From Candidatus Saccharimonadota bacterium (GTDB lineage: Bacteria; Patescibacteriota; Saccharimonadia; Saccharimonadales; UBA4665), in NCBI GenBank assembly GCA_027346135.1, contig DAIESS010000002.1, positions 1 through 61,166 of the forward strand: a stretch of DNA of 61,166 bases. The letters are read 5' to 3'. The translations under genes were made by a program, and so were the position numbers. The notes under the pieces were generated by a model. That model saw only the letters and a list, made by a program, of their open reading frames with translations. It had not been told where the DNA came from and searched no databases. Shown one piece after another: positions 18,741-50,140 of this stretch (the first letter of the stretch is position 1; each line of letters begins with the position of its first letter).

Positions 18741-19844
18741 TTATTTAGTGACGTTGAATTTGAATTCCACGACATCGTTCGGCTGCATGACGTAAGTTTT
18801 GCCTTCGGTACGGACTTTGCCGGCGGCCTTGGCGGCAGCTAGCGGCGAGCCATTGGTCTGGTCGGCGCTTAGGGAGATGAGATCGTTGTAGTCGATAATT
18901 TGAGCGGCGATGAAGCCTTTCTCGAAGTCGCCGTGAATAACGCCCGCGGCTTGCGGGGCGGTAGCGCCCTTGTGAACCGTCCAGGCCCGTACCTCTTTTT
19001 CGCCAGCGGTAAGATAACTTTGCAAGCCAAGCGTGGCATAGGCGGCATGTATAAGTTGGATTAAGCCAGATTCCTTTACGCCATAGCTTTCGAGTAGTTC
19101 AGCGGCATCGGTGGCATCTAAGCTGCGCAGCTCACTTTCCAATTTGGCACAGACAAACAGGGCGGGTGACGGCGCAACCAATTCACGTAGTTTTTGCTGG
19201 TGGGCGGTGTCGGTCAAACCGTCTTCGTCAAGATTGAATACATATATTACTGGCTTAGCGGTTAACAACTGAAGGTCGGCAATGTGCTCGCGGTCGATGT
19301 CTGGTTGACTCCAGATGGGCTGGCCGCTGTCGAGCAGAGTGCGAACTTGTAAAATCGTGTCGAGTACGGGCTTTAATTTCGGGTTAGCTCGGGCTTCTTT
19401 TTCGAATTTATTAAGTCGGTTAGTAACGGTTTGTAAGTCGGCCAGGACCAATTCGGTGTTAATGACATCGATGTCTTTAGCCGGGTCGTGTTGCTCGTCG
19501 ACATGTTGAACGTTAGGGTCGTCAAAGGCCCGTACAACCTGCACGATGGCGTTCGTACTACGGATATGGCTCAAAAATTGATTACCCAGACCTTCACCCT
19601 TACTGGCGCCGGCTACCAGTCCAGCAATATCAACAAAGCTAACCGTTGCTGGAACGATATTGTTAGTTTTGTACAAAGAGGCTAGCTTTGTCAGCCGCTC
19701 ATCCGGTACGGGTACTATGCCGGTATTTGGTTCGATAGTCGCAAACGGATAATTAGCCGCCAGAATGTTGCTGTCGGTTAGGGCATTAAACAACGTGGAT
19801 TTACCAACGTTGGGCAAGCCGACGATGCCAATGGATAAGCTCAT
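18741..19844 (-). CDS. ychF: redox-regulated ATPase YchF
   Basis: IGIVGLPNVGKSTLFNALT and a C-terminal TGS-like domain. Confidence 0.95.
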   Translation of the reverse strand: MSLSIGIVGLPNVGKSTLFNALTDSNILAANYPFATIEPNTGIVPVPDERLTKLASLYKTNNIVPATVSFVDIAGLVAGASKGEGLGNQFLSHIRSTNAIVQVVRAFDDPNVQHVDEQHDPAKDIDVINTELVLADLQTVTNRLNKFEKEARANPKLKPVLDTILQVRTLLDSGQPIWSQPDIDREHIADLQLLTAKPVIYVFNLDEDGLTDTAHQQKLRELVAPSPALFVCAKLESELRSLDATDAAELLESYGVKESGLIQLIHAAYATLGLQSYLTAGEKEVRAWTVHKGATAPQAAGVIHGDFEKGFIAAQIIDYNDLISLSADQTNGSPLAAAKAAGKVRTEGKTYVMQPNDVVEFKFNVTK

Positions 19845-19872
19845 AATTTATATTGTAACAGAGGCAAAATAG

Positions 19873-19901
19873 TTGACAAAACATAATAGTTTTGCTATTA
19901 T
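19873..19901 (+). promoter_or_regulatory. unit A promoter
   Basis: TTGACA-17 nt-TATTAT. Confidence 0.55.
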
Positions 19902-20000
19902 ACGGCCGAACTGTTGGAATAGTGGCGGCACTATTACTCTTTGGAGTTCCGTATTTTTAGTACGATGATGGTCGTGCTGCTTGCCAACGTTCGTTTATTT

Positions 20001-20015
20001 AACATGTCAGATTGT
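20001..20015. repeat. inverted repeat L1 (AACATGTCAGATTGT)
   Basis: Exact reverse complement of 20496-20510. Confidence 0.9.
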
Positions 20016-20181
20016 CCGGATATTTAGACGAGAGTTTAAGTGTCTAGTGTCACAGCAGGCGCACGACCGAGAGTCGCACACTTCCTGTGATACTAAACCC
20101 CGGTGTTTGGTTGCTCACTGATGTAAACCATGATTTTGACCCATCCCGAGTCAAACGTGGCGATTTACGAAAGGACACACC

Positions 20182-20322
20182 ATGAACACGAGCGTCAAGA
20201 ACATCGTCATGCCTGTCCGCAAGGTCGGCACGAAGGTCGGCGTCGCCGTCACGGCAGTGGTCACCGCAACTGCTGGCGTCATCGAGCTGATCCTTACTGG
20301 GGGAAACTACCCCTGGAACTGA
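20182..20322 (+). CDS. 46-aa hydrophobic peptide (MNTSVKNIVMPVRKVGTKVGVAVTAVVTATAGVIELILTGGNYPWN), payload of unit A
   Basis: The ATG sits at the same position behind the shared CGAAAGG RBS as the unit B gene. Contains one predicted TM helix. Below the ORF-track cutoff. Confidence 0.45.
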   Translation: MNTSVKNIVMPVRKVGTKVGVAVTAVVTATAGVIELILTGGNYPWN

Positions 20323-20379
20323 TCGCTCTCTACGAACGCCGTTGCTGTTGGCTGACAACATATCGGCGTTTGTGTCGTT

Positions 20380-20451
20380 GGGCTAAGAGGCGGTGGACAT
20401 TCGTCCATCCAAAAGACGCGGTTCCAAACCGTACGTCCACCCCTCTAGCCC
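20380..20451 (+). other. conserved 3' hairpin module, unit A
   Basis: GGGCTAAGAGGCGGTGGAC .. GTCCACCCCTCTAGCCC gives 17 bp with two bulges. Inner hairpins are TGGAC-attc-GTCCA and GACGCGG..CCGTACGTC. Confidence 0.6.
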
Positions 20452-20495
20452 TGACGGCCCCCTTACACCCCAACCCTCACTCTCCTCAACAATCC

Positions 20496-20510
20496 ACAAT
20501 CTGACATGTT
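20496..20510. repeat. inverted repeat R1 (ACAATCTGACATGTT)
   Basis: Reverse complement of L1. Confidence 0.9.
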
Positions 20511-20614
20511 TCTTTCCATATTTTTGAAAGTTCAGAGTTTATCTGGGTTTGAATAACATGTGGAAGCAACTTCAACCGCCGGTTCACTAGGGCCCTGTAA
20601 CAGAGGCGAGATGG

Positions 20615-20643
20615 TTGACAAAACATAAAAGTTTTAGTATGAT
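20615..20643 (+). promoter_or_regulatory. unit B promoter (lies between R1 and L2)
   Basis: TTGACA-17 nt-TATGAT. Confidence 0.55.
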
Positions 20644-20740
20644 ACAACAGCAATTTTGGAATTGTAGAGGCATTAGTATTATTTTGAGCGCCGTACGCAT
20701 GTACGATGACGCTCGTGCAGCTAACCAAAGTTCGCACATT

Positions 20741-20755
20741 AACATGTCAGATTGC
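20741..20755. repeat. inverted repeat L2 (AACATGTCAGATTGC)
   Basis: Exact reverse complement of 22672-22686. Confidence 0.9.
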
Positions 20756-20936
20756 AAAGATATATTAGCTGGATTTTTGAGTGTCTAGTATCGCAGCAGG
20801 TGCACGACAAATTATCGTTAATGGTCGCACTCTTACTGTGATACTGGACACCACATTGTGTTTGGTCAATCACGGCATGACACCATGATTTTGACTCATC
20901 CCGAGCCAAAACGTGGCTACCCGAAAGGGAACCCTC

Positions 20937-21809
20937 ATGAAGGACGGAAATCAGCTTGCCCGAAAGGCACTGGAGCTGCGCTTCAGCCTTTCCCGGGTGA
21001 TCGGTGGGCTTGTTGTGGCAATTGTCGGTTGCGTCGCCCTCGTCATGGGGACGAGCTTCACCGCCGATGCCGCCACGACCGTGACCACGGTGACCGCTTC
21101 GTACGCGGCCCCCACGGTGCAGTGCTCGCCGCTCGCGGTGGTCATCCCCAGTTCGCCTGGGTACGACTACTACATGTCGACCGGGCGCACCGGCTTCACG
21201 CTGGTGGCGGCTGGCAGCTACCCCGTGTCGACATCCGACCTCCCGGTCGGTGTATCGGTGCGACTGGCTGGTTCATCGCCCGATGGGCCCCCGCTGCAGT
21301 TCTGGGACCTGAGCGCGGACATCACGGCCTGTGGCACGACGACGTCAACAACGCCGCCGACGACCACCACGACCACTCCGCCGGTCACGACCACCACGTC
21401 GCCGCCGACGACCACCACGACCACGACAACGCCACCGACGACGACGTCAACAACGCCGCCGACGACCACCACGACCACTCCGCCGGTCACGACGACAACG
21501 ACGCACACCACGTCAACGACGCCGCCCACGGTGACTTCGACCTCTACGTCGTCTACGACTCCGGTCGTGACGAAGACGACCAAGACGTCGTCTCACGTAG
21601 TGGTCGTGGGGCACGGCAACAACCGCAACACCCCGAGTTCCACCTCGACCTCCGCCTCGCGTGCAGCGGGCGTGGGTACGGGTGGTCAGCTCGATGCAAC
21701 CAAGACCAGCAGCAGCTTCCCGCTGCTCCCGGTCGGTCTCATCGCCGCCGGCCTCCTGCTGGCAGCGACAGGCCTGAGGAAGCCCCAGCGTGTCAGGGCG
21801 ACACGCTGA
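20937..21809 (+). CDS. secreted Thr/Pro-rich surface protein with a sortase-type C-terminal anchor architecture
   Basis: Signal peptide (..VALVMGTSFTADA), TTPPTTTTT repeats, and a C-terminal hydrophobic helix plus RKPQRVRATR tail. ATG 20937 was chosen by homology with the unit A RBS/ATG. GC-rich. Confidence 0.75.
   Translation: MKDGNQLARKALELRFSLSRVIGGLVVAIVGCVALVMGTSFTADAATTVTTVTASYAAPTVQCSPLAVVIPSSPGYDYYMSTGRTGFTLVAAGSYPVSTSDLPVGVSVRLAGSSPDGPPLQFWDLSADITACGTTTSTTPPTTTTTTPPVTTTTSPPTTTTTTTTPPTTTSTTPPTTTTTTPPVTTTTTHTTSTTPPTVTSTSTSSTTPVVTKTTKTSSHVVVVGHGNNRNTPSSTSTSASRAAGVGTGGQLDATKTSSSFPLLPVGLIAAGLLLAATGLRKPQRVRATR
21339..21493 (+). repeat. tandem repeat, 53-bp perfect copies with a 102-bp period
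   Basis: ACGACGTCAACAACGCCGCCGACGACCACCACGACCACTCCGCCGGTCACGAC occurs at 21339 and 21441. Confidence 0.85.
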
Positions 21810-22569
21810 GCACAGCGGTCACCGCTGGCTCAACTGGTCGGTAGCCCTCGGAGTAACCCTGGTTATGCTGGGGATGGTCCTTTGGGCTACCGGCCAACTG
21901 GGGACAGTTGCTGGAAGTAGCGCTTCGGCTCAGCCGACGCGAACCTTGCCAGTAACACCCTCAGGTTCGGCGGTGCCGCCAACGTCGTCTTCGTCGACGA
22001 CCACTGGTGCGCCGCGACCCGCGACGACACCAACACCAACTCACAAGGCAAAATCGACGACGGCTACTCCGCCATCAGCGGTAACTTCGCACAGAATTGT
22101 CTCGGTCGAGATTCCTGCTATTGGGGTCAAGGCCAAGGCAAGCGGAGGCATCGTGCCAACGGCGTCATCGCGCTGCGAGGGTAGTGGCGTAGCTATCTGC
22201 TACGACCCACCGGTGTTAACCGAGGTGGCCTGGGGCTCGCTCTGCGCGCTACCAAGCATCCCCTCGCACGACACCGTGTGTCTGTTTGGTCACAGTAATC
22301 GCTTCTATCCGGACAGGCAGGTCTTCAACGACCTACCCAAGCTACGGACTGGCGACAAAATCATCGTGACGACAGACACGGCGGTTTTCATCTACCGGAT
22401 GGATAAAAACCCGATTTGGGTAAACTTCAACCGTGTAAGTGAGTCCGACTGGGTTTGGGCGAAAGTTCCGAACCGACTCGTTGCCATTACGTGCACGATT
22501 GGCTCCAGTAGCTATACGGGAGCAACCGTCGCGGAGGCGACAATCGTGTCGGTTCGGCCGCTGGGCTAA
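21790..22569 (+). CDS. sortase-family transpeptidase
   Basis: N-terminal TM, Pro/Thr linker, LFGHSN (His), LRTGDKIIV, and LVAITCT (Cys). Overlaps the upstream gene by 20 nt. GC-rich. Confidence 0.72.
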   Translation: MSGRHAEHSGHRWLNWSVALGVTLVMLGMVLWATGQLGTVAGSSASAQPTRTLPVTPSGSAVPPTSSSSTTTGAPRPATTPTPTHKAKSTTATPPSAVTSHRIVSVEIPAIGVKAKASGGIVPTASSRCEGSGVAICYDPPVLTEVAWGSLCALPSIPSHDTVCLFGHSNRFYPDRQVFNDLPKLRTGDKIIVTTDTAVFIYRMDKNPIWVNFNRVSESDWVWAKVPNRLVAITCTIGSSSYTGATVAEATIVSVRPLG

Positions 22570-22634
22570 GAGGCGGTGGACGTTTGTCCATTTAAAAGAC
22601 GCGGCTAACGCCGTACGTTCACCCCCTCTGGCTC
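22563..22634 (+). other. conserved 3' hairpin module, unit B
   Basis: The 5' arm is identical to unit A. The 3' arm carries three substitutions that all keep pairing as G-U wobble. Confidence 0.6.
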
Positions 22635-22671
22635 TGGTGGTATATATCACTCTTGCCTTAATCGGCAGCCC

Positions 22672-22686
22672 GCAATCTGACATGTT
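22672..22686. repeat. inverted repeat R2 (GCAATCTGACATGTT)
   Basis: Reverse complement of L2. Confidence 0.9.
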
Positions 22687-22796
22687 TTCCTCCATAATTT
22701 TGAAAGTTCAGAAGCCTTCTGGGTTTGAATAAATATATGGAAGAGGCCGAAGCATGGCCTATTCTTATTGTGCTTGTGGTTTGGTATAGTACATCT

Positions 22797-23321
22797 ATGA
22801 GTGAAATTGTGCTCGACCCAGAGACGGCCGCTAGAAATAAACATCGTCTGCACATAAACCCTCGAACGATGTTGCTGGTTTTGGCCTTGCTAGTATTAGT
22901 GGGTATTGGTTGGGGTGTGCAGTATGTGCTGTTACACCGGACTACAAAGCCTAAGAACACGGTCGCCGATACGTCGCAGAATAGTAGTTATGCCCAATCG
23001 CTCAACGACTGGCGTCAAAAGTTAGCCGCCGCTAAAACGCCGCAGGAAAAGAGCGCTGCTCACCAGGGTTTGGCCAATGTCGAAAGTGCCCAGGGTAATA
23101 ACACGGCTGCTCTAGCCGATGCCCAGGCTGCGGTCAGCAGTGACGGCACCTCTTATGCTGCCTATGCCGTTCTGGCAATGGTAAAAATGCAGGCAGGGGA
23201 CAATGCCGGAGCAATTGCAGCTTATAAAAAAGCTGCGGAACTCGCTCGTGCCACGGGCACGCCGGAAGGTATTCGTGGCGCAAGTGATTACGAAATAATG
23301 GCAGCGAGCGTGGGGCGCTAG
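22797..23321 (+). CDS. membrane-anchored TPR-like protein
   Basis: TM helix (MLLVLALLVLVGIGWG) followed by Ala-rich helical repeats. ATG 22797 lies 6 nt after TATAGT. The ORF-track TTG 22725 lies in the repeat module. Confidence 0.5.
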   Translation: MSEIVLDPETAARNKHRLHINPRTMLLVLALLVLVGIGWGVQYVLLHRTTKPKNTVADTSQNSSYAQSLNDWRQKLAAAKTPQEKSAAHQGLANVESAQGNNTAALADAQAAVSSDGTSYAAYAVLAMVKMQAGDNAGAIAAYKKAAELARATGTPEGIRGASDYEIMAASVGR

Positions 23322-23323
23322 CG

Positions 23324-25522
23324 ATGAAAATTAACAAGAAATTCAGAGCTCTACTTACTGGCTTGTTCGTTGCGAGCGTCGCCTTTGTGGTGGCCAGCCA
23401 AAGTACGGTCTCGGCCTATACTCTTATTTCCGGAACAGGTTACTTTACTGGCACTAGTCAAAGTGCCGATGGTGATAGCTACGCTTATGACGTTATTGCA
23501 GCTCGCCAGTATGGCTACAACGCCATTCCGTCGAGTGTCTACTCTGGCGTAAGCAGCAGCCAGTTAAAAAGCAACTTTATAAACTGGCTGAATGGCTACG
23601 TTGCCCAAAACAGTACAGCCAACACCCACAACGAAGTTGGTGGCGCATTTATTGTTAATGCCATGTTGGGGCGTGCATCGGGCTCACGGACGCTTTATAT
23701 AAGTACGGCTATGTGGAACGACCTGGTGGCTAGAATTAGCCAATCCGGCATCACGGCGTCTTGGGTGACGGTCGACCCGAACTCATTGTCAGGGACGACT
23801 TCGTTTAACAACTATAACGTTGGTAAAAGTGGTGGGGATGTCTTTTTCCATTATTGGAATGCTGTCCCTCGACCCGTTATCGAATTTAGGAATTCGGCCG
23901 GTACGTTAGTGTTTGCCATTGAGATTCCTTGCGGTAACCCATTGGGTGGGTTCCCGGGCTTACCACAAGTGCCGCCAGCTACCCTGGATGGGTATAAAAT
24001 GAGTAATACCGGCAGCACGTCTGGCTTTGAATATTCGGGTCTACCCGTAAGTGTGAGTGGCGTAACTACCACAACGGGCAACCCTTTTTACTTCTCGGGC
24101 GGCTCGGCCATAACAATGTCGGGTAGCTTATCGACGACACAAACTGTTTCGGTTAATACTACAAACTTAACCAAGGGTTGGGCTGTGATTGGCCACTCCA
24201 TTTGTGATGGTACGGCCGATCCGACCGGTTGTACGAATGCAAACTTGTCCTATGGCGCTAAGTACTACGTATCGTCATCGGCTTCCAGCTTTAGTTATGT
24301 CTTCAAGAGCGGCCACCAATACCATATGCGCTGGTTCTTTAAGTCGCTAGTTGTGTTGTCATGCGCGAACTTCACAACCAACCCGACCGAGCTTGATCCG
24401 TTTACGGCTTTCACGGCCATAGCCAAAGTAAACCTCGGTACAACTGCCGCCGTACCAGCCAACCAGAACATAGCTTTAATTCTTAAAAACAGTGCTGGCG
24501 TAACCAAGTATGGTCCGGTAAACGTAGTCCCAACCACGTCGAGCGGTACATCTACTTCGACCTATTCACCGGTTGGACCGTTACCAGGGGAGACATATAG
24601 TGTTACATGGGTCTATACAGCCACGGGCTACAGCATAACCTGTAATAGCAGCCTGGTCGTAGCATATATGCCGTTCTTAGCGGTTTATGGCGGAGATATG
24701 ATAGCCGGCAATTCACCTCAAGTTGACGCTGCCGGCAACGCAGCGGGTTGCTACAGCAACAACTCAGCCGGAATTTATTCGTGGAATACGGGCTCACCGG
24801 CTTATATGGGCGCAGGGGCTTCCTATGCTGTCATGGCACTAGGCCAAATTCAAGATTTTGCTAGCGCACTGGGAAACTCGGCGCCAGACAGATTGGCGTT
24901 CGCTAATACGACGGCTAAGCATAATGTGGCAAGCGGACTTTTTGGCGGCGATGCCGGCAGTGTGCCTGCCAGCTGTGACTTTACGACCAACCAAGCTGTT
25001 ACCGATACGGGCAACACGATCATAAATGGCCACGTTGTAGGTGTTAGTTCCACTAAGACTGAAGATCGTTATGTTAAGGGCGGTGATGTTAGCATTACCG
25101 GTGATATTGTCTACAACGGCATTGGCGGCTGGGCTAAACTAGCCGATATCCCGAGCTTTAAGCTTGTCGTTGTGGGCGGAGACATCTACATCAATGCTAG
25201 CGTTCACGAGCTGGACGGCATATATGTTGCCATACCGGATTCAACCGGCAAGGGCGGTCATATTTACACCTGTGCCAGTGGTTTTACGCCGATGCTAACC
25301 TCGAGTGCTACCTATTACTCGGATTGCAACAGACCACTTGTAATTAATGGTAGTTTTACGGCTAAACAGGTTCAGTTCTTACGTACATTCGGTTCGTTGC
25401 GTCAGCCGGGTAATATATCGGCCGAGACCTTCAACTATGGGCCTGAAGTTTGGTTGCCGCGAAATACGACCTCCACTAGACAAAGCTATAATTCAATAAC
25501 GGGCTTGCCGCCAGTACTATAA
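23324..25522 (+). CDS. large secreted protein of unknown function (732 aa)
   Basis: Signal peptide MKINKKFRALLTGLFVASVAFVVASQSTVSA. Ser/Thr/Gly/Asn-rich. Start coupled to the upstream stop. Confidence 0.6.
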   Translation: MKINKKFRALLTGLFVASVAFVVASQSTVSAYTLISGTGYFTGTSQSADGDSYAYDVIAARQYGYNAIPSSVYSGVSSSQLKSNFINWLNGYVAQNSTANTHNEVGGAFIVNAMLGRASGSRTLYISTAMWNDLVARISQSGITASWVTVDPNSLSGTTSFNNYNVGKSGGDVFFHYWNAVPRPVIEFRNSAGTLVFAIEIPCGNPLGGFPGLPQVPPATLDGYKMSNTGSTSGFEYSGLPVSVSGVTTTTGNPFYFSGGSAITMSGSLSTTQTVSVNTTNLTKGWAVIGHSICDGTADPTGCTNANLSYGAKYYVSSSASSFSYVFKSGHQYHMRWFFKSLVVLSCANFTTNPTELDPFTAFTAIAKVNLGTTAAVPANQNIALILKNSAGVTKYGPVNVVPTTSSGTSTSTYSPVGPLPGETYSVTWVYTATGYSITCNSSLVVAYMPFLAVYGGDMIAGNSPQVDAAGNAAGCYSNNSAGIYSWNTGSPAYMGAGASYAVMALGQIQDFASALGNSAPDRLAFANTTAKHNVASGLFGGDAGSVPASCDFTTNQAVTDTGNTIINGHVVGVSSTKTEDRYVKGGDVSITGDIVYNGIGGWAKLADIPSFKLVVVGGDIYINASVHELDGIYVAIPDSTGKGGHIYTCASGFTPMLTSSATYYSDCNRPLVINGSFTAKQVQFLRTFGSLRQPGNISAETFNYGPEVWLPRNTTSTRQSYNSITGLPPVL

Positions 25523-25568: not shown

Positions 25569-26609
25569 ATGAGTATATTGAGTGGGGTATCGGCCTTCTT
25601 TGGACTAGACATCGGTAGCACGGCTATACGATTAGTTGAATTGCACGGTAATGGCGGCCAGAAATCGTTGGTCAAATATGCCTACATGCCCATCGAAAGC
25701 AAAATTGCTCTGAGCGACTCCAGGAACGACCAGCAGCGCTTGGCCCAAGCTATCGCTCAGCTGATTGACCAAGCCCGCTTGAGTACCAAGAACGTTGCCG
25801 TTGGCATACCGTCATCTCGCGTCTTTACGACTGTCGCCGATATCGATCGCTTACCCAATAACGAGCTGGCTAAGGCTATTCGCTATCAGGCGGATGCATT
25901 AATTCCGACACCGCTTAACGAGTCTAAGCTCGATTGGGCGTTACTTGGCGATTCGCCGAAAGAGCAGACTAAACTCGAGATTCTTTTGTCGAGCGTGCCG
26001 AATGCTTTTATTGAACAACGTCTGGATATGCTCGAATCGATTGGTTTGAACGTGATTGCCTTTGAGCCCGATAACTTGGCCTTGAGCCGGGCATTGGTGC
26101 CACATGATGCCACGACACCGCAGATGGTTCTCGATATTGGCCAGAAGAACACCGATCTTGTTATTCTTATGAACGGTACGCCACGTCTAACCCGGGCTAT
26201 ACCAACCGGCATGGAAGCTGTCATTCGATCGGCCATCCAAAACTTAAATGTCGACGAAAAACAGGCCGAGCAATTTGTATTTAAGTTTGGTCTTGGCAAA
26301 GACAAACTTGACGGCCAGGTCTATCAAGCAATTATCGGTACTATCGATATATTGATTGGTGAAATCGATAAATCGATTAAATTTTTCCAAACACGCTATA
26401 CCGACGCTAAGCTTGAGCGCATGATTGTAACCGGTGGCGCATCAGTCTTACCGGAATTTCCATTGCTGCTTGCTAACAAATTCGGTGTGAACGTTGAAAT
26501 TGGCAATGCCTGGCGGAATGTTGCAGTCTCGTCTGATCGTCAAAACGAACTTTTGGCCATATCTAACCAATTTGGGGTAGCCGTAGGCCTGGCGGAGCGA
26601 AGCGAATGA
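25569..26609 (+). CDS. pilM: type IV pilus assembly protein PilM
   Basis: Actin-like ATPase fold with FGLDIGSTAIRLVEL. Confidence 0.85.
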   Translation: MSILSGVSAFFGLDIGSTAIRLVELHGNGGQKSLVKYAYMPIESKIALSDSRNDQQRLAQAIAQLIDQARLSTKNVAVGIPSSRVFTTVADIDRLPNNELAKAIRYQADALIPTPLNESKLDWALLGDSPKEQTKLEILLSSVPNAFIEQRLDMLESIGLNVIAFEPDNLALSRALVPHDATTPQMVLDIGQKNTDLVILMNGTPRLTRAIPTGMEAVIRSAIQNLNVDEKQAEQFVFKFGLGKDKLDGQVYQAIIGTIDILIGEIDKSIKFFQTRYTDAKLERMIVTGGASVLPEFPLLLANKFGVNVEIGNAWRNVAVSSDRQNELLAISNQFGVAVGLAERSE

Positions 26610-27259
26610 TCCAATTTAACCTCTTACCAGACGTAAAATTACAGTACATTAAAGCACAGCGCACCAAGCATACTGTTGTTACCATTTCAGTGCTAGCGGG
26701 TGCAGCCGCTCTGGTGCTGTTTGTATTCTTAATCTTGTCAGTTGATGTCGTTCAGAAGAAACTCATGAGCGATAAATCTAAGCAGATCAATCAGCTTAGC
26801 AGCGAGATACGCAAGACGCCTAACTTATCAAAGATGTTGACGGTACAGGCGCAACTTAACCAGTTAACCGCCCTGCATGACTCTAAGCCGGTCATGTCAC
26901 GGCTGTTAGAGTACATGAATAAGTTAACGCCGACGTCGGTTTCGATATCTCAGCTCTCGCTCGACAACCAGGCCAAGACCATGGTTATAAGTGGCACGGC
27001 CGATACGCTCGATAGTGTTAACGCCTTCACTGACTCTCTAAAATATACCACTTACCAGGTCGACGGTTCGGACCAGCCGGCTAAGAATGCTTTTTCTAAC
27101 GTTGTCCTAACTAACATTAACCGCGATAGCACGCGCGCAACCTTTAGCCTTAGCTTGTCGTTCGATGACACCATCTTCAACAACGCCGGTAATGTTACGC
27201 TTACGGTCAACAAATCAGTCGCCGAGCAGGCCGCCGCAATAATCACCAAGGGGCAATAA
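26606..27259 (+). CDS. pilN: type IV pilus assembly protein PilN
   Basis: IQFNLLPD motif plus a single TM. 4-nt overlap with pilM. Confidence 0.75.
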   Translation: MIQFNLLPDVKLQYIKAQRTKHTVVTISVLAGAAALVLFVFLILSVDVVQKKLMSDKSKQINQLSSEIRKTPNLSKMLTVQAQLNQLTALHDSKPVMSRLLEYMNKLTPTSVSISQLSLDNQAKTMVISGTADTLDSVNAFTDSLKYTTYQVDGSDQPAKNAFSNVVLTNINRDSTRATFSLSLSFDDTIFNNAGNVTLTVNKSVAEQAAAIITKGQ

Positions 27260-27261
27260 TT

Positions 27262-27933
27262 ATGGCACAACCGAGTTCCGTCAAACGATCGCTGATAGAC
27301 AAGGCCAATACGACCATTGTCGCTGTCACGGCTGGCGCCTGTTTTGTAGTGGTTTTCTCCCTCGTAGCATCAGCAACACTGTTTAGCCAGTTCAACTACC
27401 AAAACCGGATTATCGGCGCTAAAAACAAGGCCATCAAGCAGCTCAAGGACGATAAAGCTGCGACCGACAATCTAAAGGTTTCGTACGATAGTTTCGTCAA
27501 TTCTTCGCAGAATATTCTTGGCGGCAATCCAACCGGCACTGGTCCGCAAGACGGTGACAACGCCAAGATTATCCTCGATGCATTGCCGAGTAAATACGAC
27601 TTTCCAGCCTTAACGACGAGTTTGGAAAAAATTCTTACCAGCCAGAGTGTAGAAATCCAAACCATCACTGGTACGGACGATGCACTTAATCAGTCGGACA
27701 ATCAAACTAGCTCAAATCCGACGCCACAGACGATGCCATTCAAAATTTCGGTCGACGGCAACTATGATAGCTTGCACAATGTTTTGCTGGCCCTTGAGCG
27801 GTCGATTCGGCCAATTCAAATTACCACTCTCGATATTAGCGGTGATCAAACCAAGTTAACCCTTAACATTGACGCCCAGACCTACTATCAACCGGCTAAA
27901 GATCTTAACATAACGATGCAGGTAGTGAAATGA
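27262..27933 (+). CDS. PilO-like pilus assembly protein
   Basis: N-terminal TM, coiled coil, and position after pilN. Confidence 0.5.
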   Translation: MAQPSSVKRSLIDKANTTIVAVTAGACFVVVFSLVASATLFSQFNYQNRIIGAKNKAIKQLKDDKAATDNLKVSYDSFVNSSQNILGGNPTGTGPQDGDNAKIILDALPSKYDFPALTTSLEKILTSQSVEIQTITGTDDALNQSDNQTSSNPTPQTMPFKISVDGNYDSLHNVLLALERSIRPIQITTLDISGDQTKLTLNIDAQTYYQPAKDLNITMQVVK

Positions 27934-28181
27934 AACAAAAAGACGTTGCTCTTATAATTGTGATTGCAGCCATCAGTGGTTTTGCGTCCTTCTTTTTGTC
28001 GCACTTTCTTTTTGCCACTCCCCAGAATCGTGAGCAGAAAGTCGAAGTTGTCGATAAAATTACGACCGAATTTCCTTTGCCCAGCCATAAATACTTTAAC
28101 GAGAACTCTATCGATCCGGCACAGTTGGTACAGGTGGTGGATAATAATAACCCCAACCCTTTTAAAGGTGCGGGGCAGTAG
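27930..28181 (+). CDS. small membrane protein in the pilus locus (83 aa)
   Basis: One TM. 4-nt overlap with the upstream gene. Confidence 0.4.
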   Translation: MKQKDVALIIVIAAISGFASFFLSHFLFATPQNREQKVEVVDKITTEFPLPSHKYFNENSIDPAQLVQVVDNNNPNPFKGAGQ

Positions 28182-28208
28182 CAGCCTTTTGCTGGGCGGT
28201 AGTTTGCT

Positions 28209-30023
28209 ATGAGCGTATTGTCTGCAGCCAGTCAGCAGCAGGTAGAGGACGAGCTGATCAGCGAAGGCTTCTTGACGGCTGATGGTTTAAAAAAAGTTAA
28301 AGATAAAGCGGCTGAAAAATCGGCTCCAGTTCTGGGTTTGCTGGTTAGCGAAGGCCTGGTAACGAATGAACAGCTAACCAAGGCAATCGCCAAGGTTACC
28401 AAGATGCCGTACGTTAATCTATCGGCGGCACGTATCGACCAAAAGATTCTAGCTTTGTTGCCGCAAGATATTGCCGAACGATATATGGCTGTGCCATTGG
28501 GTGAGATGCAACATCGTCTAGTTGTGGCCATGCTCGATGCCGACAATGTGCAGGCCGTCGACTTTTTGAGCAATAAAATTGGTCGGCCGCTCAAAGTATA
28601 CGCCGCCTCTGAAGAAGGGGTACGCAATGTCCTTAAACAATACCAGGCAAGCATCGCCGAGTCGGTGGCTGGTGACATCGAGAAGCTAACCGGTGACGTC
28701 AAAGTCGAAGAGGGCGCTCCGGCCGATCCTAAGGGTGGTACGGCGCAAGCTCCGGCCAAGAACATCAAGACCCTGGTGCAAGATTCGCCAATTTCGAAAG
28801 CACTCTCAACCATTCTGGAGTTCGCCGCCAAAAACCACGCCAGTGACGTTCACATCGAACCATTGCAGGACAGTTTAAAGATACGCTGTCGGATTGATGG
28901 TATCTTGCGCGAAGTCATGAAGTTGCCAAAAAGCACTGAACCGCCACTGGTTTCGCGCATCAAAATTTTATCCAACTTGAAGATCGATGAACACCGGACA
29001 CCTCAGGATGGTGAATTTACCATCCAGGTAGCTGGTAAAGACATTGACCTTCGTATCGCCATTTCGCCGGTTATATGGGGTGAGCAGGTGGTTATTCGTT
29101 TGCTCGACAAGTCTGGCACCAGTCTCCGTCTGGAAGACATGGGCTACCGTGGTCGAGCTTTGCGCACGATTCGTGATGGCCTAAAACAGAGTAATGGTAT
29201 GATTCTGACTAGTGGACCGACCGGTTCTGGTAAGTCGACCTCGCTATATGCGCTAATTCAAGAAATTAAAGACGATGCCATTAACATTGTGACGCTGGAA
29301 GACCCGGTTGAGTACAAAATGGAGGGCATTAACCAGATTCAGGTAAACGCCGACGTTGGTTTAACTTTTGCCAGTGGTTTGCGCTCGATTTTGCGCCAAG
29401 ACCCCGACGTTGTAATGGTGGGGGAGATTCGCGATAAAGAAACGGCCGAATTAGCCGTCCAGGCCGCTCTAACGGGTCACTTGGTGTTTAGTACGTTGCA
29501 CACTAACAGTGCGGCTGGCATTCTGCCTCGCTTGCTCGATATGGGTATTGAGCCGTTTCTGATAGCTAGCACCGTAAAAACTGTGATTGGCCAGCGTTTA
29601 GTCCGCCGTATCGGTGAAGAAAACAAAGAAACCTACCAGAGTAACGCTGTCGAAACTGAGTCAATCCACAAGACACTCGACAAGTTTTTGCCGGCTGACG
29701 CCGCTAAAATGAAGGCGGCTTGCGAAGACTTCGGCTATGATAGCTTGCCACTGGCGGGCCAAAGCGCTTATACTTTGAGCAAGGGCAAAGATAGCCCGGC
29801 TTCGCCAGGCGGCTATAGCGGCCGAATGGGGATTTACGAAGTGTTTGCCGTGACAGAAGAAGTCCAAAAGAAGATTCTAACACGGTCAACCAGCGCTGAA
29901 ATCCAGAAGATCGCCCAAGAACAGGGCATGGTCACTATGCGGGAAGATGGCTATCTGAAAGCCTTAAGTGGCTATACAACATTAACAGAAATTAACCGCG
30001 TCGCTGCGGCAGACATACAATAA
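28209..30023 (+). CDS. pilB: type IV pilus extension ATPase PilB (GspE family)
   Basis: GSPII_E N-domain and Walker A SGPTGSGKSTS, plus Asp and His boxes. Confidence 0.92.
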   Translation: MSVLSAASQQQVEDELISEGFLTADGLKKVKDKAAEKSAPVLGLLVSEGLVTNEQLTKAIAKVTKMPYVNLSAARIDQKILALLPQDIAERYMAVPLGEMQHRLVVAMLDADNVQAVDFLSNKIGRPLKVYAASEEGVRNVLKQYQASIAESVAGDIEKLTGDVKVEEGAPADPKGGTAQAPAKNIKTLVQDSPISKALSTILEFAAKNHASDVHIEPLQDSLKIRCRIDGILREVMKLPKSTEPPLVSRIKILSNLKIDEHRTPQDGEFTIQVAGKDIDLRIAISPVIWGEQVVIRLLDKSGTSLRLEDMGYRGRALRTIRDGLKQSNGMILTSGPTGSGKSTSLYALIQEIKDDAINIVTLEDPVEYKMEGINQIQVNADVGLTFASGLRSILRQDPDVVMVGEIRDKETAELAVQAALTGHLVFSTLHTNSAAGILPRLLDMGIEPFLIASTVKTVIGQRLVRRIGEENKETYQSNAVETESIHKTLDKFLPADAAKMKAACEDFGYDSLPLAGQSAYTLSKGKDSPASPGGYSGRMGIYEVFAVTEEVQKKILTRSTSAEIQKIAQEQGMVTMREDGYLKALSGYTTLTEINRVAAADIQ

Positions 30024-30038
30024 CGGAAGGGTGGAACC

Positions 30039-31106
30039 ATGCAGGGGCAACCGCGAATAGAAGTATTACTGGAAGAAGTCGTAAAAAAGAAGGCTTCTGA
30101 CCTCCATTTACAGGTCGGTTTGCCGCCCATGCTACGTATTGATGGTTCACTCGTGCCCGTTAGTGGCGCCGATGCTTTAAGCGATGAGGCGGTTGAGGCG
30201 CTTATCTTTGCGGTGCTCGACGAAGACCAAAAACAAATCTTACTCAAGGACAAGGAATTTGACTTCAGTTTTGCCTTTGGTGATCTTGGGCGTTTTCGTG
30301 TTAACGCTTTCCACGAACGTGGTAACTTAGCCGCCGCCTTACGTTTAATTACCAACGAGATTCTGACGACCGAACAACTTGGCTTGCCGCCGATTGTTAC
30401 TAAGTTTGCAGACTACCCGCGTGGTTTGGTCCTCGTAACTGGACCGACTGGTTCTGGTAAGTCCACCTCGCTAGCGGCTTTGATCCACAAGATCAACATG
30501 GAGCAGGCCAAACACATTATTACCATCGAAGACCCGATTGAGTACACTCACATGTCGCGTAAGTCGGTGATTGTTCAGCGCGAAGTTCACTACGACACTT
30601 ATAGCTTCTCGGCTGCTTTACGCAGTGCCTTGCGTGAAGACCCGGACGTTGTGCTGATCGGTGAAATGCGTGACCTTGAGACCATCGCTTCGGCCATTAC
30701 CATTGCCGAAACTGGTCACTTGGTCTTTGCTACCTTGCACACCAACAGCGCCGCTCAATCGATCGACCGTATGATCGATGTCTTTCCGCCTCACCAGCAG
30801 CCCCAAATTCGGGCTCAGTTATCGAACATCTTGGTGGCTATATGCTCACAGCGTCTAATCCCAGCTATTGGTGGCGGCCGTGTCGCAGCCGCTGAGATTT
30901 TAATCGGTACTCCAGCTGTTCGTAACATTATTCGCGAAGGTAAGAGCCACCAGCTTGACGCCGTTATTCAGACGGGTGCCGAATTTGGTATGCAATCGAT
31001 GGACAAAACCTTGGCTAACTTTATTCACGAAGGTACCATCAGCTACGATGAAGCCCGTAATTATGCCGTCGATGTCGATGAGCTAGATAGGTTAATGAGG
31101 AGCTAA
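30039..31106 (+). CDS. pilT: twitching-motility retraction ATPase PilT
   Basis: 355 aa with GPTGSGKSTSLAAL and ATLHTNSAAQSIDRMIDVF. Confidence 0.92.
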   Translation: MQGQPRIEVLLEEVVKKKASDLHLQVGLPPMLRIDGSLVPVSGADALSDEAVEALIFAVLDEDQKQILLKDKEFDFSFAFGDLGRFRVNAFHERGNLAAALRLITNEILTTEQLGLPPIVTKFADYPRGLVLVTGPTGSGKSTSLAALIHKINMEQAKHIITIEDPIEYTHMSRKSVIVQREVHYDTYSFSAALRSALREDPDVVLIGEMRDLETIASAITIAETGHLVFATLHTNSAAQSIDRMIDVFPPHQQPQIRAQLSNILVAICSQRLIPAIGGGRVAAAEILIGTPAVRNIIREGKSHQLDAVIQTGAEFGMQSMDKTLANFIHEGTISYDEARNYAVDVDELDRLMRS

Positions 31107-31111
31107 GACTC

Positions 31112-32335
31112 ATGCTAACGTACGATTACGTTGCGCGCGACCCGGCCAGCGGCCGGCAAGTGAAGGCTGGCGTCCAGGCGGACAGCGAGTCTTCGGCGGC
31201 GAAACTGATTCGTGCTGAGGGGTTGGTGCCAATCGATATTCAGGTTAGTAAAGTTGCGACGGGCGGCTTGCTGGGTCGCTTTAAGCGTGTTAAGACGAAA
31301 GACAAAGTGCTATTTTCACGCCAGCTGGCCACGTTGCTAAACGCCGGCTTGCCACTGTTGCAGAGCTTGCGCAGTGTTAATGGTCAAACCGAAAGCAAAC
31401 AGTTGAAAGTGATCATAGCCGATATCATCACCGATATCGAAGGTGGTTCGTCCTTGGCCAATTCTATGGGTAAACACCCTGATGTGTTCAACCAGATTTA
31501 TCTTAGTTTGGTGGCAGCCGGGGAGGCGTCCGGTACTCTTGATCAAGCGCTTGAACGCTTGGCTAATCAGCAAGAAAAGGATGCCGACATTGTCTCCAAG
31601 ATTCGCGGTGCCATGATTTATCCGTTGATCGTCCTGGTTGTGATGGGCGGCGTGGCCGGTTTTATGATCATTAAGGTGTTACCGCAGGTAAAAACACTGT
31701 ATAGCAGCGTAGCGAAGGGCCATAGCTTGCCGTTCGTTACTCAGGTGTTATTAGCCATTTCAGATTTCACCATCCACTTTTGGTGGGTTGTGCTTATTAT
31801 TGTTGCCGTATTGGTGGTATTCACATCGAAATGGGCTCGGTCGGTTGGTGGTAAAACGCTCATCGACAAGGTAAAGATGCAGGCCTGGCCGTTCGGACCT
31901 CTTTTTATGAAGGTCTACATGGCTCGATTTTCGCGTACGGGCTCAACGCTGGTCGCCAGTGGCGTACCACTGATTCAGGTGCTCGAAATTACTTCCAGTG
32001 CTATCGACAATGTCCATATTGCCGATTCACTCCGCGGCGCCATCGAGAAGGTCAAGGGCGGTAAATCGCTTGGCGACTCACTCCAGGGCGACCCAAACTT
32101 CCTTGAGCTAGTACCTAACATGCTTAAAATTGGTGAGCAATCCGGTTCGATGGAACAAATGCTGGGCAAAACCGCCGATTACTATGAAAAAGAAGTCGAC
32201 CAAGAAATTAAAAATATCCAGACCCTAATTGAGCCACTCATGATGGTTCTAATGGGTATTATGGCTCTAATTATCGTTGCAGCTGTTCTTCTACCGATAT
32301 ATAACCTGGCCGGAAACGTCGGCGGTGTCGTGTAA
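31112..32335 (+). CDS. pilC: type IV pilus platform protein PilC
   Basis: Two GspF repeats and three TM segments. Confidence 0.9.
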   Translation: MLTYDYVARDPASGRQVKAGVQADSESSAAKLIRAEGLVPIDIQVSKVATGGLLGRFKRVKTKDKVLFSRQLATLLNAGLPLLQSLRSVNGQTESKQLKVIIADIITDIEGGSSLANSMGKHPDVFNQIYLSLVAAGEASGTLDQALERLANQQEKDADIVSKIRGAMIYPLIVLVVMGGVAGFMIIKVLPQVKTLYSSVAKGHSLPFVTQVLLAISDFTIHFWWVVLIIVAVLVVFTSKWARSVGGKTLIDKVKMQAWPFGPLFMKVYMARFSRTGSTLVASGVPLIQVLEITSSAIDNVHIADSLRGAIEKVKGGKSLGDSLQGDPNFLELVPNMLKIGEQSGSMEQMLGKTADYYEKEVDQEIKNIQTLIEPLMMVLMGIMALIIVAAVLLPIYNLAGNVGGVV

Positions 32336-32431
32336 AGAAGAGGGGCTGTTTAAAATATCACTTGCAAATTGCGCTGCATCTCTATAGTATGCAAGCATAA
32401 GCATTAATAGCACGTAAGGGGGCACTTGCAC

Positions 32432-32896
32432 ATGCTACAAAACATCAAGAAACGTAACGAAGGCTTTACTATCATCGAAGTGATGATCGTCTTGGCAATT
32501 GCCGGACTTATTATGCTGATCGTGTTCCTGGCTGTTCCAGCCTTACAGCGTAACTCACGCAACACTCAATACAAGAACGACGCTGCTTCATTGCTGTCGG
32601 CTGCGACTGAGTGGAGCAACAACAATAACGGTAAGGTTCCTGCCTCGGCTAATGCAGCAGCTATCCAGTCGCTAGCTAAGACCCAGAACATTACAACTCT
32701 CGTTATTAGCGCTGGTACTTCATCAATTACAACTAGCAACTTCAACACTGCCTACATCGTAACGGGCGTAAAGTGCAACACCAACAGTGGTGCTACGGCT
32801 AGCCTAACTACTGGTGTGGCTACTCGTGCTATGGCTATGGTATACGCTGTGGAAGATTCTTCCGGCGGTAAAGTCGCTCAGTGTACTGAGAGCTAA
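32432..32896 (+). CDS. type IV major pilin
   Basis: Prepilin leader MLQNIKKRNEG / FTIIEVMIVLAIAGL. ATG 32432 is better spaced from the GGGGG RBS than TTG 32426. Confidence 0.85.
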   Translation: MLQNIKKRNEGFTIIEVMIVLAIAGLIMLIVFLAVPALQRNSRNTQYKNDAASLLSAATEWSNNNNGKVPASANAAAIQSLAKTQNITTLVISAGTSSITTSNFNTAYIVTGVKCNTNSGATASLTTGVATRAMAMVYAVEDSSGGKVAQCTES

Positions 32897-32920
32897 ACTT
32901 AGCGAGCAACAAGAATTATA

Positions 32921-32948
32921 AAACAGGCCCCCAAGGGGCCTGTTTTTT
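32921..32948 (+). terminator. rho-independent terminator after the pilin gene
   Basis: ACAGGCCCC-aa-GGGGCCTGT followed by TTTTT. Confidence 0.75.
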
Positions 32949-32965
32949 GTGATAACATAAGCGTA

Positions 32966-33817
32966 ATGGTTATCGCTCTCTTAATTGTGTTTGGCTTAAG
33001 CCTGGGAAGCTTTGTAAATGCGCTGGTTTGGCGTTTGCACGAGCAAGCCGAGCTGTCGCGGCGTAAGAAAAGGACGAAACAACAAGCTGAATATCTGCAT
33101 GACCTCTCTATTAGTCGAGGCCGTAGCATGTGCCCGCATTGTCATCATGAACTAGCTGCAAAAGATTTGGTGCCGGTTTTGAGCTGGCTGTCCCTAAGGG
33201 GCAAGTGCCGCTATTGCCAAAAGCCGATTAGTTGGCAGTATCCGCTTGTCGAGCTGCTGATGGCAGTGATATTTGTTTTTACTTATCTTTACTGGCCATT
33301 AACCCTGAGTGGCCAAAATTGGGTACAATTTGCAGCTTTTCTAGTACTTCTAGTAGGTTTTATGGCTCTGAGTGTATATGATATCCTTTGGTTTCTATTG
33401 CCCGACAGACTGATTGCGCCTTTAACTTTCATTGCCGTGGTGACGGTTCTATTTGTTAGTTTCACGAGCCACGATGGCTTGGCGACTTTTGCCAATGCAG
33501 CCGGCGGAGCGACTGTCATAGCGATTCTATTCTATGCTTTATTTTGGTTTTCAAAAGGCCAGTGGATAGGCGGAGGAGACGTCAAGCTAGCGCCAATGTT
33601 AGGTCTGCTGGCAGGCAATCCAATCAAAGCCTTGTTGGTCGTTTTTTTCGCCTCTTTAATTGGACTTCTGGTGGCCGTACCACTGATGATAAGAGGAAAG
33701 GCTAATCGGTCTAGTCATATTCCTTTTGGCCCTTGTTTGATGGCGGCCGCTCTATTGGTGGTATTATTCGGCGGTAATATAGTGCATGCCTACGAAGCAG
33801 TATTTACGCTGAACTGA
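32966..33817 (+). CDS. pilD: prepilin peptidase PilD (A24 family)
   Basis: CPHCHH..CRYCQ zinc motif, multiple TM segments, and GGGDVKL. Confidence 0.9.
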   Translation: MVIALLIVFGLSLGSFVNALVWRLHEQAELSRRKKRTKQQAEYLHDLSISRGRSMCPHCHHELAAKDLVPVLSWLSLRGKCRYCQKPISWQYPLVELLMAVIFVFTYLYWPLTLSGQNWVQFAAFLVLLVGFMALSVYDILWFLLPDRLIAPLTFIAVVTVLFVSFTSHDGLATFANAAGGATVIAILFYALFWFSKGQWIGGGDVKLAPMLGLLAGNPIKALLVVFFASLIGLLVAVPLMIRGKANRSSHIPFGPCLMAAALLVVLFGGNIVHAYEAVFTLN

Positions 33818-33853
33818 TATCATGCCGAATACGCTTATGTTATACTTGACCTC

Positions 33854-34633: not shown

Positions 34634-35280
34634 GTAAACGTCATTCAAAACAAGGCTTTGGCTCGTATGGTTTTACCGTCTTGGAGCTGCTTGTTTCTAC
34701 GCTGGTCTTCAGCGTTGTTTTACTAGTTATCACTGCCGGGATTATTGCCTTTACGCGCCAGTACTATCACGGTGTCATTAATTCGCGAACGCAAGCGACG
34801 ACTCGCGCTATAATGGCGGAATTAACGCAGAGCTTACAGTTTGGCCGAACGGTCAATTTGGGGCTGGTGAACGGATCGGCTAACGGCTTCTGTATAGATA
34901 ACAAGCTTTTTAGTTATGTTACGGGCCAGCAAGTTGAGTCGAGCCCTGATACAACTCAGCACCAAAATTACCAAGGTTTCGTCGAGAATAATAACGGTGG
35001 AACCTGTAGTGCTACCAGTGGCAGCTCTTTGAGTGTACCTGCGACAGCCGTGTTGCCTAGCGGCGAACGAGAATTACTGGGAGATCATATGCGTTTAGGC
35101 GATCTGACTATCCAGCCCACCGCCGGCGGACTTTATAGGGTTCATTTAAGGGTTATCTATGGCACCGATGATTTACTATCGAGCACAAACTGGGCCACGG
35201 CAGTTTGCAAGGGTGGCTCTGGGTCACAGTTTTGCTCTGTATCGGAGTTGACCACGACCGTTCAACAAAGGTTAGAATAG
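34627..35280 (+). CDS. pilin-like protein (minor pilin)
   Basis: GSYG / FTVLELLVSTLVF prepilin signal. Confidence 0.65.
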   Translation: MLSKRHSKQGFGSYGFTVLELLVSTLVFSVVLLVITAGIIAFTRQYYHGVINSRTQATTRAIMAELTQSLQFGRTVNLGLVNGSANGFCIDNKLFSYVTGQQVESSPDTTQHQNYQGFVENNNGGTCSATSGSSLSVPATAVLPSGERELLGDHMRLGDLTIQPTAGGLYRVHLRVIYGTDDLLSSTNWATAVCKGGSGSQFCSVSELTTTVQQRLE

Positions 35281-50137: not shown

Positions 50138-50140
50138 ATT

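Follow-up and report, generated by a model that had tools for sequence, protein, structure and literature searches.

The DNA analysed here, called the window throughout, is a stretch of 61,166 nucleotides (nt) of contig DAIESS010000002.1 from a Candidatus Saccharimonadota genome, with an overall GC content of 0.491. A single sharp GC peak in the window was occupied by two overlapping open reading frames (ORFs) on the + strand: ORF1 (20937..21809), encoding a surface protein of 290 amino acids (aa), and ORF2 (21790..22569), encoding a 259-aa enzyme with a sortase fold. This gene pair, hereafter the cassette, lay between non-coding flanks that recurred 740 nt upstream. The reading favored below, held with moderate confidence, is that of a surface-display module in a conserved frame of a Saccharimonadales genome, with a cargo that was laterally acquired.

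GC content was 0.631 at 20937-22569 and 0.487 in the rest of the window. A 200-nt profile reached 0.62-0.70 at ~20900-22300, with abrupt steps at both ends. GC content at third codon positions (GC3) was 0.808 in ORF1 (z=+6.6) and 0.642 in ORF2 (z=+2.9), against 0.514±0.045 (maximum 0.60) in the other 51 ORFs of the window. Synonymous codon choice was shifted as well: Thr was encoded by ACG at a frequency of 0.51 in the pair vs 0.29 elsewhere, Pro by CCG at 0.68 vs 0.43, and Val by GTG at 0.50 vs 0.21. The non-repetitive N-terminal domain of ORF1 had a GC3 of 0.86, and a native Thr/Ser-rich neighbor of 732 aa used ordinary codons (GC3 0.51). The GC3 z-scores and the synonymous shift are the composition expected of a horizontally acquired island, and they bore out the earlier reading, made from the sequence only, that the pair uses GC-rich codons in a window of moderate GC. 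Alternative-frame ORFs at 20858-21844 (+ strand, 328 aa), 21218-21583 (- strand, 121 aa) and 20130-20504 (+ strand, 124 aa) were not counted as genes, since they look like a side effect of the GC-rich or repetitive sequence.

ORF1 was characterized from its sequence, an AlphaFold2 (AF2) model, its repeats, and its homology to a protein on another contig (L001, below). Its N-terminus carried a basic stretch followed by a hydrophobic helix (residues 4-40 in the AF2 model), and the ADA-A context suggests signal-peptide cleavage near A45/A46. There followed a ~90-aa Cys-containing domain, for which a word-based homologue search found no relatives, and a Thr/Pro stalk encoded by imperfect 48-nt tandem repeats (21339-21504). 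The C-terminal region comprised a sorting signal, RAAGVGTGG, with the motif GVGTG at 21669-21683; a hydrophobic helix at residues 264-280 (21726-21776; AF2); and a basic tail, RKPQRVRATR (21777-21806). The AF2 model of ORF1, made without an alignment, had a pLDDT of 44. ORF1 was the sole ORF in the window with such a C-terminus. The signal peptide, Thr/Pro repeats, helix and tail reproduced the sortase-substrate architecture that had been proposed, and the reported lack of a canonical LPXTG motif held: there was no LPXTG, no LAXTG, and no match to Gram_pos_anchor or another anchor domain in Pfam or NCBIfam.

ORF2 started at a GTG codon eight bases after GAGGAAG, within the end of ORF1, giving a 20-nt overlap. 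Its layout, read from Pfam, AF2 and Foldseek, ran from a membrane helix at the N-terminus (residues 10-35) through a Pro/Thr/Ser linker to a catalytic domain (~100-259). The protein passed the Pfam Sortase model (PF04203 / MEROPS C60) with 36.1 bits against a gathering score of 26.6, and a PDB profile search returned sortases only. His168 (LFGHSN; 22291-22293) and Cys235 (AITC; 22492-22494), the two motifs named in the earlier reading, were invariant in 19 family members. The AF2 model had a pLDDT of 83 overall and >90 over residues 100-259; all top 50 Foldseek matches were sortases, with target-normalized TM-scores of 0.53-0.77 and including SrtA and SrtE1, so that the predicted model has the sortase beta-barrel fold. 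The nearest solved folds were the class E SrtE1 of Streptomyces coelicolor (PDB 5cuw) and a class A SrtA (PDB 5hu4). The proposed class assignment by hidden Markov model gave no class, as ORF2 fell below every NCBIfam class A-F cutoff: it scored 25.8 vs 160 for class E (NF033747) and had no class F (NF033748) match at E<=0.1, its relatives scoring 20-30 bits vs a cutoff of 166. No member of the sortase family reached any NCBIfam class A-F cutoff, and by these sequence models ORF2 is placed in a sortase family that fits none of the classes. No Arg was invariant in the family alignment; the column compared was that aligned to the Arg of the class A sortase 7f87 (DRIIV) in a PDB profile alignment, by sequence only, the model not having been searched for a substitute Arg.

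The neighboring YchF (18741-19844) was 64-75% identical to homologues in Ca. Saccharimonadales and Saccharibacteria metagenome-assembled genomes (MAGs), with 73-75% identity to the Ca. Saccharimonadales MAGs, and the window encoded, besides typical housekeeping genes, a type IV pilus cluster. The window is assigned to Saccharimonadales on protein similarity, in agreement with the recipient named by the sequence-only reading. The best-matching sequencing run was a mine-drainage metagenome. After Saccharibacteria, the next-best YchF matches among GTDB representatives (loci L022-L087) were nearly all from Actinomycetota (55-61% identity), which may be an effect of the search pattern, an old affinity or transfer.

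Only two other clusters among 5.8 billion proteins were close to ORF2 (P0002 and P0003). The P0002 sortase, 68% identical to ORF2, lay on a contig of 56% GC (L007) from a relative of the window organism in another sample, and was followed by the same 3' non-coding trailer (below) and the same TPR gene. Proteins flanking it were 47-52% identical to those of the window, the insertion site was common to both, and the GC3 of the L007 sortase equaled that of its neighbors. The P0003 sortase, 60% identical to ORF2, was found on contigs of 70% GC (L001-L006). On L001, a 269-aa Thr/Pro-rich protein was encoded directly 5' of the sortase; it was 37% identical to ORF1 and shared the block RAA-x-[VI]GTG. 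Both genes of L001 were thus homologous to those of the window and in the same order, which supports the suggestion that the enzyme and its substrate form a matching pair. Neighbors of the L001 pair (PFOR, ROK, a sugar ABC transporter, GH3 and an nSTAND-WD40 protein) were not like those of Candidate Phyla Radiation (CPR) bacteria; their best matches in a plasmid database, all weak, were to Nonomuraea and Streptomyces, and the 70%-GC genome is probably actinobacterial. The L001 cassette was GC-poor for its surroundings (GC3 0.71-0.76 vs 0.94-0.96 in adjacent genes) and had neither the leader nor the trailer of the window. It was located at L001:7974-10498, directly downstream of a 77-aa and PIN (VapBC-like) pair and between unrelated metabolic operons. 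One of the 70%-GC contigs (L006) and L007 came from the same sample, 3300047676.

Three relatives (L010, L013 and L020) kept the order ychF ... (TPR) - large surface protein - pilM, and at this syntenic site the sortase pair, leader and trailer were absent. Absence at the syntenic site, together with a nearest outside homologue in a 70%-GC genome of weakly supported phylum, is the distribution expected of an island.

Partners of related sortases shared x[VIL]GTG at a distance of ~35-45 residues from the C-terminus, with a hydrophobic stretch and then a basic tail after it. The motif read GVGTG in ORF1, AIGTG in the L001 partner, SLGTG in the partner on a further contig (L099), and MYG[AS]x[VI]GTG in six small peptides of 52-55 aa (motif residues [HSNYG][VI]GTG). 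The likely sorting motif of ORF1 is GVGTG, with x[VIL]GTG as the family consensus. The kept T-G dipeptide fits sortase chemistry, and cleavage would fall between Thr248 and Gly249, within the peptide stretch SRAAGVGTGGQLD. QLDATK, previously put forward as the nearest candidate, had to be abandoned: it was not conserved in L001, and the conserved block RAAG-V-G-T-G lay just upstream. Partners in the P0011/P0018 clade (L097, L098) carried RAAGSGLG, with SGLG in place of the motif, so that enzyme and signal appear to evolve together. None of the cargo surface proteins had a Pfam domain. No paper on an x[VIL]GTG sorting motif was found in literature on the sortase motifs VGTG/IGTG/LGTG and Patescibacteria sorting signals, a search not directed at the Arg-less family or the framed locus.

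The recurring flanks defined two copies of an expression frame on the + strand: unit 1 (19854-20566), the first and decayed copy, and unit 2 (20596-22743), which carried ORF1 and ORF2. The unit 1 leader (19854..20181) contained a sigma-70-like promoter (TTGACA-17-TATTAT, 19873-19901; 11/12 matches in the promoter scan) and a ~280-nt structured 5' untranslated region (UTR) up to an AAGGA ribosome-binding site. The unit 2 leader (20596..20936) contained the promoter TTGACA-17-TATGAT (20615-20643), a 5' arm, hairpins and an AAGGG ribosome-binding site. The two leaders (~290 nt) were 73-77% identical up to the start codon, and 69/69 predicted leader pairs were kept in both units. A 'MILTHPE' start was also conserved in both leaders and had no ribosome-binding site upstream. 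In unit 1 the leader was followed by a 46-codon ORF (20182..20322; GC3 0.81) with a polar/basic N-terminus and a ~20-residue hydrophobic stretch. It matched no family, and comparison with ORF1, with the L001 protein and with the MYG peptide profile gave no significant similarity; from its architecture and the flanking relic it is probably a signal-peptide-like stub left by an earlier cargo. That relic (20339..20386) was a sortase 3' end (...AFVSLG stop), homologous at the DNA level to 22526-22569, the last codons of ORF2; trailer homology between the units (~220 nt) began 44 nt inside the sortase 3' end.

The unit 1 trailer (20387..20566) comprised a stem-loop (GAGGCGGUGGAC...GUCCACCCCUC), a 3' arm (20496-20510) and a terminal hairpin. 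The unit 2 trailer (22570..22743) comprised the conserved stem-loop (22570-22631), a 3' arm (22672-22686) and a hairpin, and was followed by a terminator-like hairpin with a T-run (22744-22770). The block CACCCCTCTGGC, upstream of the 3' arm, was a conserved element of the frame. The trailer stem-loop (GAGGNGGUGGAC...GUCCACCCCUC) was kept in L007, with compensatory changes in the inner hairpin. Rfam gave no match at the locus, either at gathering thresholds over the whole window or at E<=5 over 19700-22900. The unit 1 leader (19852-19879, - strand) overlapped a divergent ychF promoter (TTGTCA-16-TACAAT), and unit 2 (20594-20621, - strand) contained a copy of this stretch with a degenerate -10; unit 2 therefore arose by tandem duplication of the ychF-proximal frame.

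In each unit the 5' and 3' arms were perfectly complementary over 15 nt: the unit 1 5' arm AACATGTCAGATTGT (20001..20015) to 20496-20510, and the unit 2 5' arm (20741-20755) to 22672-22686. This length was reached in 0/2000 shuffles. A 14-nt arm core occurred in four perfect copies in the window vs 0.33 expected even with two mismatches allowed, and position 15 was a T-A pair in unit 1 and a C-G pair in unit 2. The minimum-energy RNA fold of unit 1 paired its arms (z=-7.7), and the unit 2 arms paired with a probability of ~1.0 in a 2096-nt fold, across 1.9 kb. Eleven viral-contig matches to the 16-nt arm, each a single copy and about the number estimated by chance, were dismissed.

The frame recurred, by sequence comparison, with other cargos in two further contigs, the same in L099 and similar in L097. 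L099 shared with the window the ychF start, the promoter, the 5' part of the leader and an identical 5' arm. Beyond this arm it had a different leader 3' part, a different surface protein (402 aa) and a sortase of another clade, 39% identical to ORF2 over the catalytic domain; the cargo had GC3 values of 0.78 and 0.62 behind a 41%-GC leader. L097 was Saccharibacteria-like, with a neighbor gene 46% identical to the gene beside ychF in L020, and carried a third cargo (GC3 0.86 and 0.68 vs 0.55-0.69 in neighbors). Common to L097 and the window were the hairpin UAGUGUCAC...GUGACACUA in the leader and the block CACCCCUCGGCC in the trailer. Arms of 13 nt stood at equivalent positions, matched by only 5/2000 shuffles, and differed from the window arms by three double, pair-keeping changes (GUCAGAUUGC/GCAAUCUGAC against ACCAGACUGC/GCAGUCUGGU); the 3' arm lay upstream of a canonical terminator. 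Different GC-rich cargos in L097 and L099 point to a dedicated variable locus and not to a single host-to-epibiont capture.

The wider sortase family had about 160 representatives in an exhaustive HMMER search. In a neighbor-joining tree, the window, L007 and L001 sortases formed one clade. Its sister clade was found in an operon of polysaccharide deacetylase - GT2 glycosyltransferase - 52-55-aa peptide - sortase (L088:1607-4476, L090:3323-6543, L091:3458-5696, L092:890-4127, L093:828-3768 and L095:2-1435). In L091 no deacetylase stood beside GT2, and the L095 contig began inside GT2. The peptide followed the pattern MYG[AS]x[VI]GTG...TM...RRxxRxGxHQRP; it resembled a sorting signal on its own, the motif being preceded by no more than 4-5 residues, and had no family match. 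The operon occurred in 70%-GC genomes (L088, L093) and in contigs of 49-57% GC, one of which (L091; P0006) was from Ca. Saccharibacteria bacterium 32-49-12. The sortase did not differ from its neighbors in composition in L091, L092 and L095. Since the operon is present in both kinds of genome, the family is long established in Saccharibacteria and has crossed to or from high-GC bacteria more than once. A pattern scan of 185,579 GTDB species representatives gave no homologue, and scans of metagenome contigs and viral contigs gave no sortase relatives; the metagenome-contig collection does not include these samples, since the trailer-pattern scan missed even the window itself.

The abrupt GC step at both cassette ends would also be expected of an assembly chimera, in which a Saccharibacterial contig had been fused to an actinobacterial fragment. 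This is highly improbable, as Logan contigs from independent runs crossed both junctions at matching depth: X2 spanned 20788-20938 (leader into ORF1), X1 spanned 22016-23322 (sortase into the TPR gene) and X5 spanned 20489-20794 (unit 1 into unit 2). Related cargos were also joined to the same native flanks in L007 and L099, which came from other samples. Because independent contigs cross both junctions, the cassette is not a chimera. A contig from run X5 omitted 84 nt within the Thr/Pro repeat region (21338-21423), which indicates that the number of stalk repeats varies between strains. The arms, for their part, could be DNA recombination sites of 14-15 nt, at which inversion would turn either the cargo or the promoter of unit 2 on and off, with phase variation or shuffling as the result. 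The four copies alternate in orientation (20001+, 20497-, 20741+, 22673-); perfect inverted repeats flank each cargo, one pair flanks a 230-nt segment with the unit 2 promoter, and L099 homology to the window leader stops just after the 5' arm. Covariation of the two arms fits inversion equally. Against an invertible switch, no invertase was encoded within ~14 kb of the cassette, units 1 and 2 were homologous also inside the arms, and consensus contigs from four datasets showed the reference orientation where they crossed an arm, with no strand-switch joints reported. In the window and in L097, both arms lay inside the predicted transcript, between promoter and terminator, which favors an RNA helix and leaves inversion quite unlikely.

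A lateral origin of the gene pair is well supported, and an actinobacterial host is one possible donor. Direct capture of the cassette from a high-GC actinobacterial host, to serve as a host-derived adhesin with its sorting enzyme, was the proposal of the sequence-only reading. The foreign composition (GC3 far above that of the genome), the syntenic absence and the closest outside homologue, a unit of the same two genes in a genome of 70% GC whose other proteins best match Actinomycetota, sustain its horizontal part, as does the recovery of a window relative (L007) and a high-GC organism (L006) from one sample. Cultivated Saccharibacteria are also reported to live in association with actinobacterial hosts (10.64898/2026.03.03.709456). 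The donor is less secure, and direct capture is a modest possibility. The L001 cassette is GC-atypical and looks acquired there too, so that the 70%-GC lineage is not a simple donor and either direction of transfer is possible; the site shared with L007 at 47-52% flank identity makes the insertion old, yet its GC3 is still 0.81. L099 has a different GC-rich cargo in the same frame and L097 has another in a similar one, and the GTDB species representatives held no homologue by pattern scan. The sortase family is native in other Saccharibacteria, so that of the two findings named as refuting (homologues within the CPR lineage, or a native composition) half holds: the wider family has native composition in other Saccharibacteria (P0006). 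Reverse or third-party transfer, with a Saccharibacterial pool or an unseen mobile element of ~62-66% GC and the 70%-GC organism as recipient, draws support from the L001 copy, which has a lower GC content than its genome and adjoins a VapBC-like pair with unrelated operons on either side; from the composition plateau common to three Saccharibacterial cargos; and from the mix of 49-57%-GC and 70%-GC hosts in the sister clade. The cassette is, however, no closer to Saccharibacterial composition (0.51) than to that of the L001 genome, and no mobile-element genes or viral-contig matches were seen; this alternative is rather unlikely. That the genes are native, fast-evolving surface genes, made GC-rich by selection or mutation bias (e.g., mRNA structure, repeats), is consistent with the same GC3 pattern in three cargos whose sortases are 35-40% identical, with the L007 sortase matching its neighbors in GC3, and with the commonness of sortases in CPR bacteria (PMC6744442). 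It is improbable given the GC3 of 0.86 in the non-repetitive N-terminal domain, the GC3 of 0.51 in the native Thr-rich neighbor, the absence of the pair at syntenic sites in relatives and the 60%-identical pair in a non-CPR genome. A broader proposal is put forward tentatively: a Saccharimonadales cassette platform beside ychF, upstream of the type IV pilus genes, with an unchanging promoter, structured leader and trailer and a covarying long-range helix, in which GC-rich modules with x[VIL]GTG signals and sortases of an Arg-less family not described before would be swapped, duplicated and decayed, drawing on a pool shared with high-GC hosts, and which would determine host attachment or host range.

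Several observations weigh against the favored reading of a framed display module with a laterally acquired cargo. Taxonomic assignment of the 70%-GC contigs depends on weak matches in a plasmid database, and no integrase, transposase or other mobility gene flanks the cassette, the sole recombinase in the window being Xer-like and 14 kb away. Three unrelated Saccharibacterial cargos lie on one GC3 plateau, with the L001 copy intermediate; independent transfers and amelioration do not predict a common plateau, which could mean selection or mutation bias and not foreign origin. Only two to four leader and trailer copies are known, so that structure statistics are weak, with 27/500 shuffles as extreme as the observed value; a DNA inverted repeat would account for the arm covariation equally well; and metatranscriptomes of the same study had no coverage of the locus. 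The sorting motif is based on about 11 sequences and short identities, and a profile of the small peptides gave no match to ORF1. The canonical Arg column holds A/T in the window clade and N in distant members, and with no aligned Arg counterpart catalysis may differ or be lost.

Under the favored reading, ORF1 would be exported and would stay in the membrane through the hydrophobic helix and basic tail at its C-terminus. Membrane-anchored ORF2 would process it at the non-LPXTG motif GVGTG, presumably after Thr248, and transfer it to a cell-envelope acceptor, probably anchoring it to the cell wall. The result would be a Thr/Pro stalk bearing a small N-terminal domain on the cell surface. The gene pair would be an exchangeable cargo in an AT-rich expression frame beside ychF. 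In this frame a sigma-70-type promoter and a structured leader of ~290 nt precede the cargo and a structured trailer follows it; a leader-trailer helix of 15 bp would close the whole mRNA and, as an RNA element, probably controls stability, processing or translation. The frame would have been tandemly duplicated, and of the cargo in the first copy all that is left would be a signal-peptide stub and the final ~15 sortase codons. The cargo would have come laterally from a GC-rich cassette pool common to Saccharibacteria and high-GC, probably actinobacterial, bacteria.

The pair shares with Gram-positive sortase systems (PF04203) a sortase fold of eight strands, a membrane anchor at the N-terminus of the enzyme, His in a GHS(N) context and Cys in a TC context. 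Shared too is a substrate encoded immediately upstream whose signal has three parts: a motif with TG at its end, then a hydrophobic helix, then a basic tail. It differs in that the ORF2 family scores 20-30 bits against class A-F models with cutoffs of 140-166, in the Ala, Thr or Asn that sequence alignments place in the canonical Arg column across the family, and in the motif, x[VIL]GTG here and not LPXTG or LAXTG. Dedicated sortase-substrate pairs include class B SrtB with IsdC and class D SrtC of Bacillus. As in those, one enzyme and one substrate form an operon, here with overlapping and probably translationally coupled genes; unlike those, the sortase family and motif are different and the pair appears to be exchangeable cargo in a non-coding frame. 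Long-range 5'-3' mRNA pairing occurs in the fold-back element of hok mRNA and in the 3'UTR-5'UTR interaction of icaR in Staphylococcus aureus. The helix of 13-15 bp between leader and 3' UTR likewise encloses a coding region, with a predicted pairing probability of ~1 and covariation between lineages. In contrast to hok and icaR, the 5' arm of the window leaves the ribosome-binding site, which is ~180 nt downstream of it, unmasked, and no antisense RNA or toxin was evident at the window locus. Horizontal gene transfer between CPR bacteria and other bacteria has been reported (PMC10031880), including the acquisition of arginine deiminase by Saccharibacteria (PMC8764695), and sortases are known and common in CPR bacteria (PMC6744442). 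The cassette resembles reported transfers in its atypical composition, patchy distribution and nearest relative in another phylum, and differs from them in being a surface-display module at a recurrent framed locus whose copy in the partner genome is atypical too.

Directly downstream of the cassette were the TPR protein and the 732-aa surface protein (22797-25522) and the type IV pilus cluster (25569-36353), read by eye as pilM, pilB, pilT, pilC, pilins and prepilin peptidase. The surface protein had no Pfam domain and had diverged homologues (about 30-35% identity) in other Saccharibacteria. With these genes directly downstream, the cassette stands at the edge of a surface-structure region. 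Elsewhere in the window, the ORF listed at 50140-51132 started atop a tRNA-Pro gene (50141-50216, - strand), and its true start is probably further downstream.

To our knowledge, type IV pili apart, host recognition and attachment by Saccharibacteria are largely not understood. A surface protein that is exchanged laterally, varies between strains, comes with an anchoring enzyme of its own and is encoded beside a pilus cluster is a candidate attachment or host-range factor, in a group that is now genetically tractable. A sortase family that is Arg-less by alignment and has an x[VIL]GTG signal would widen the known sortase specificities and may serve protein ligation, and the conserved frame with its covarying 5'-3' helix is an RNA or DNA element with no Rfam match. 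The composition data caution that GC-rich genes in an epibiont need not have been taken from its host. If the cassette platform tentatively proposed above is real, the locus would determine host attachment or host range in these bacteria.

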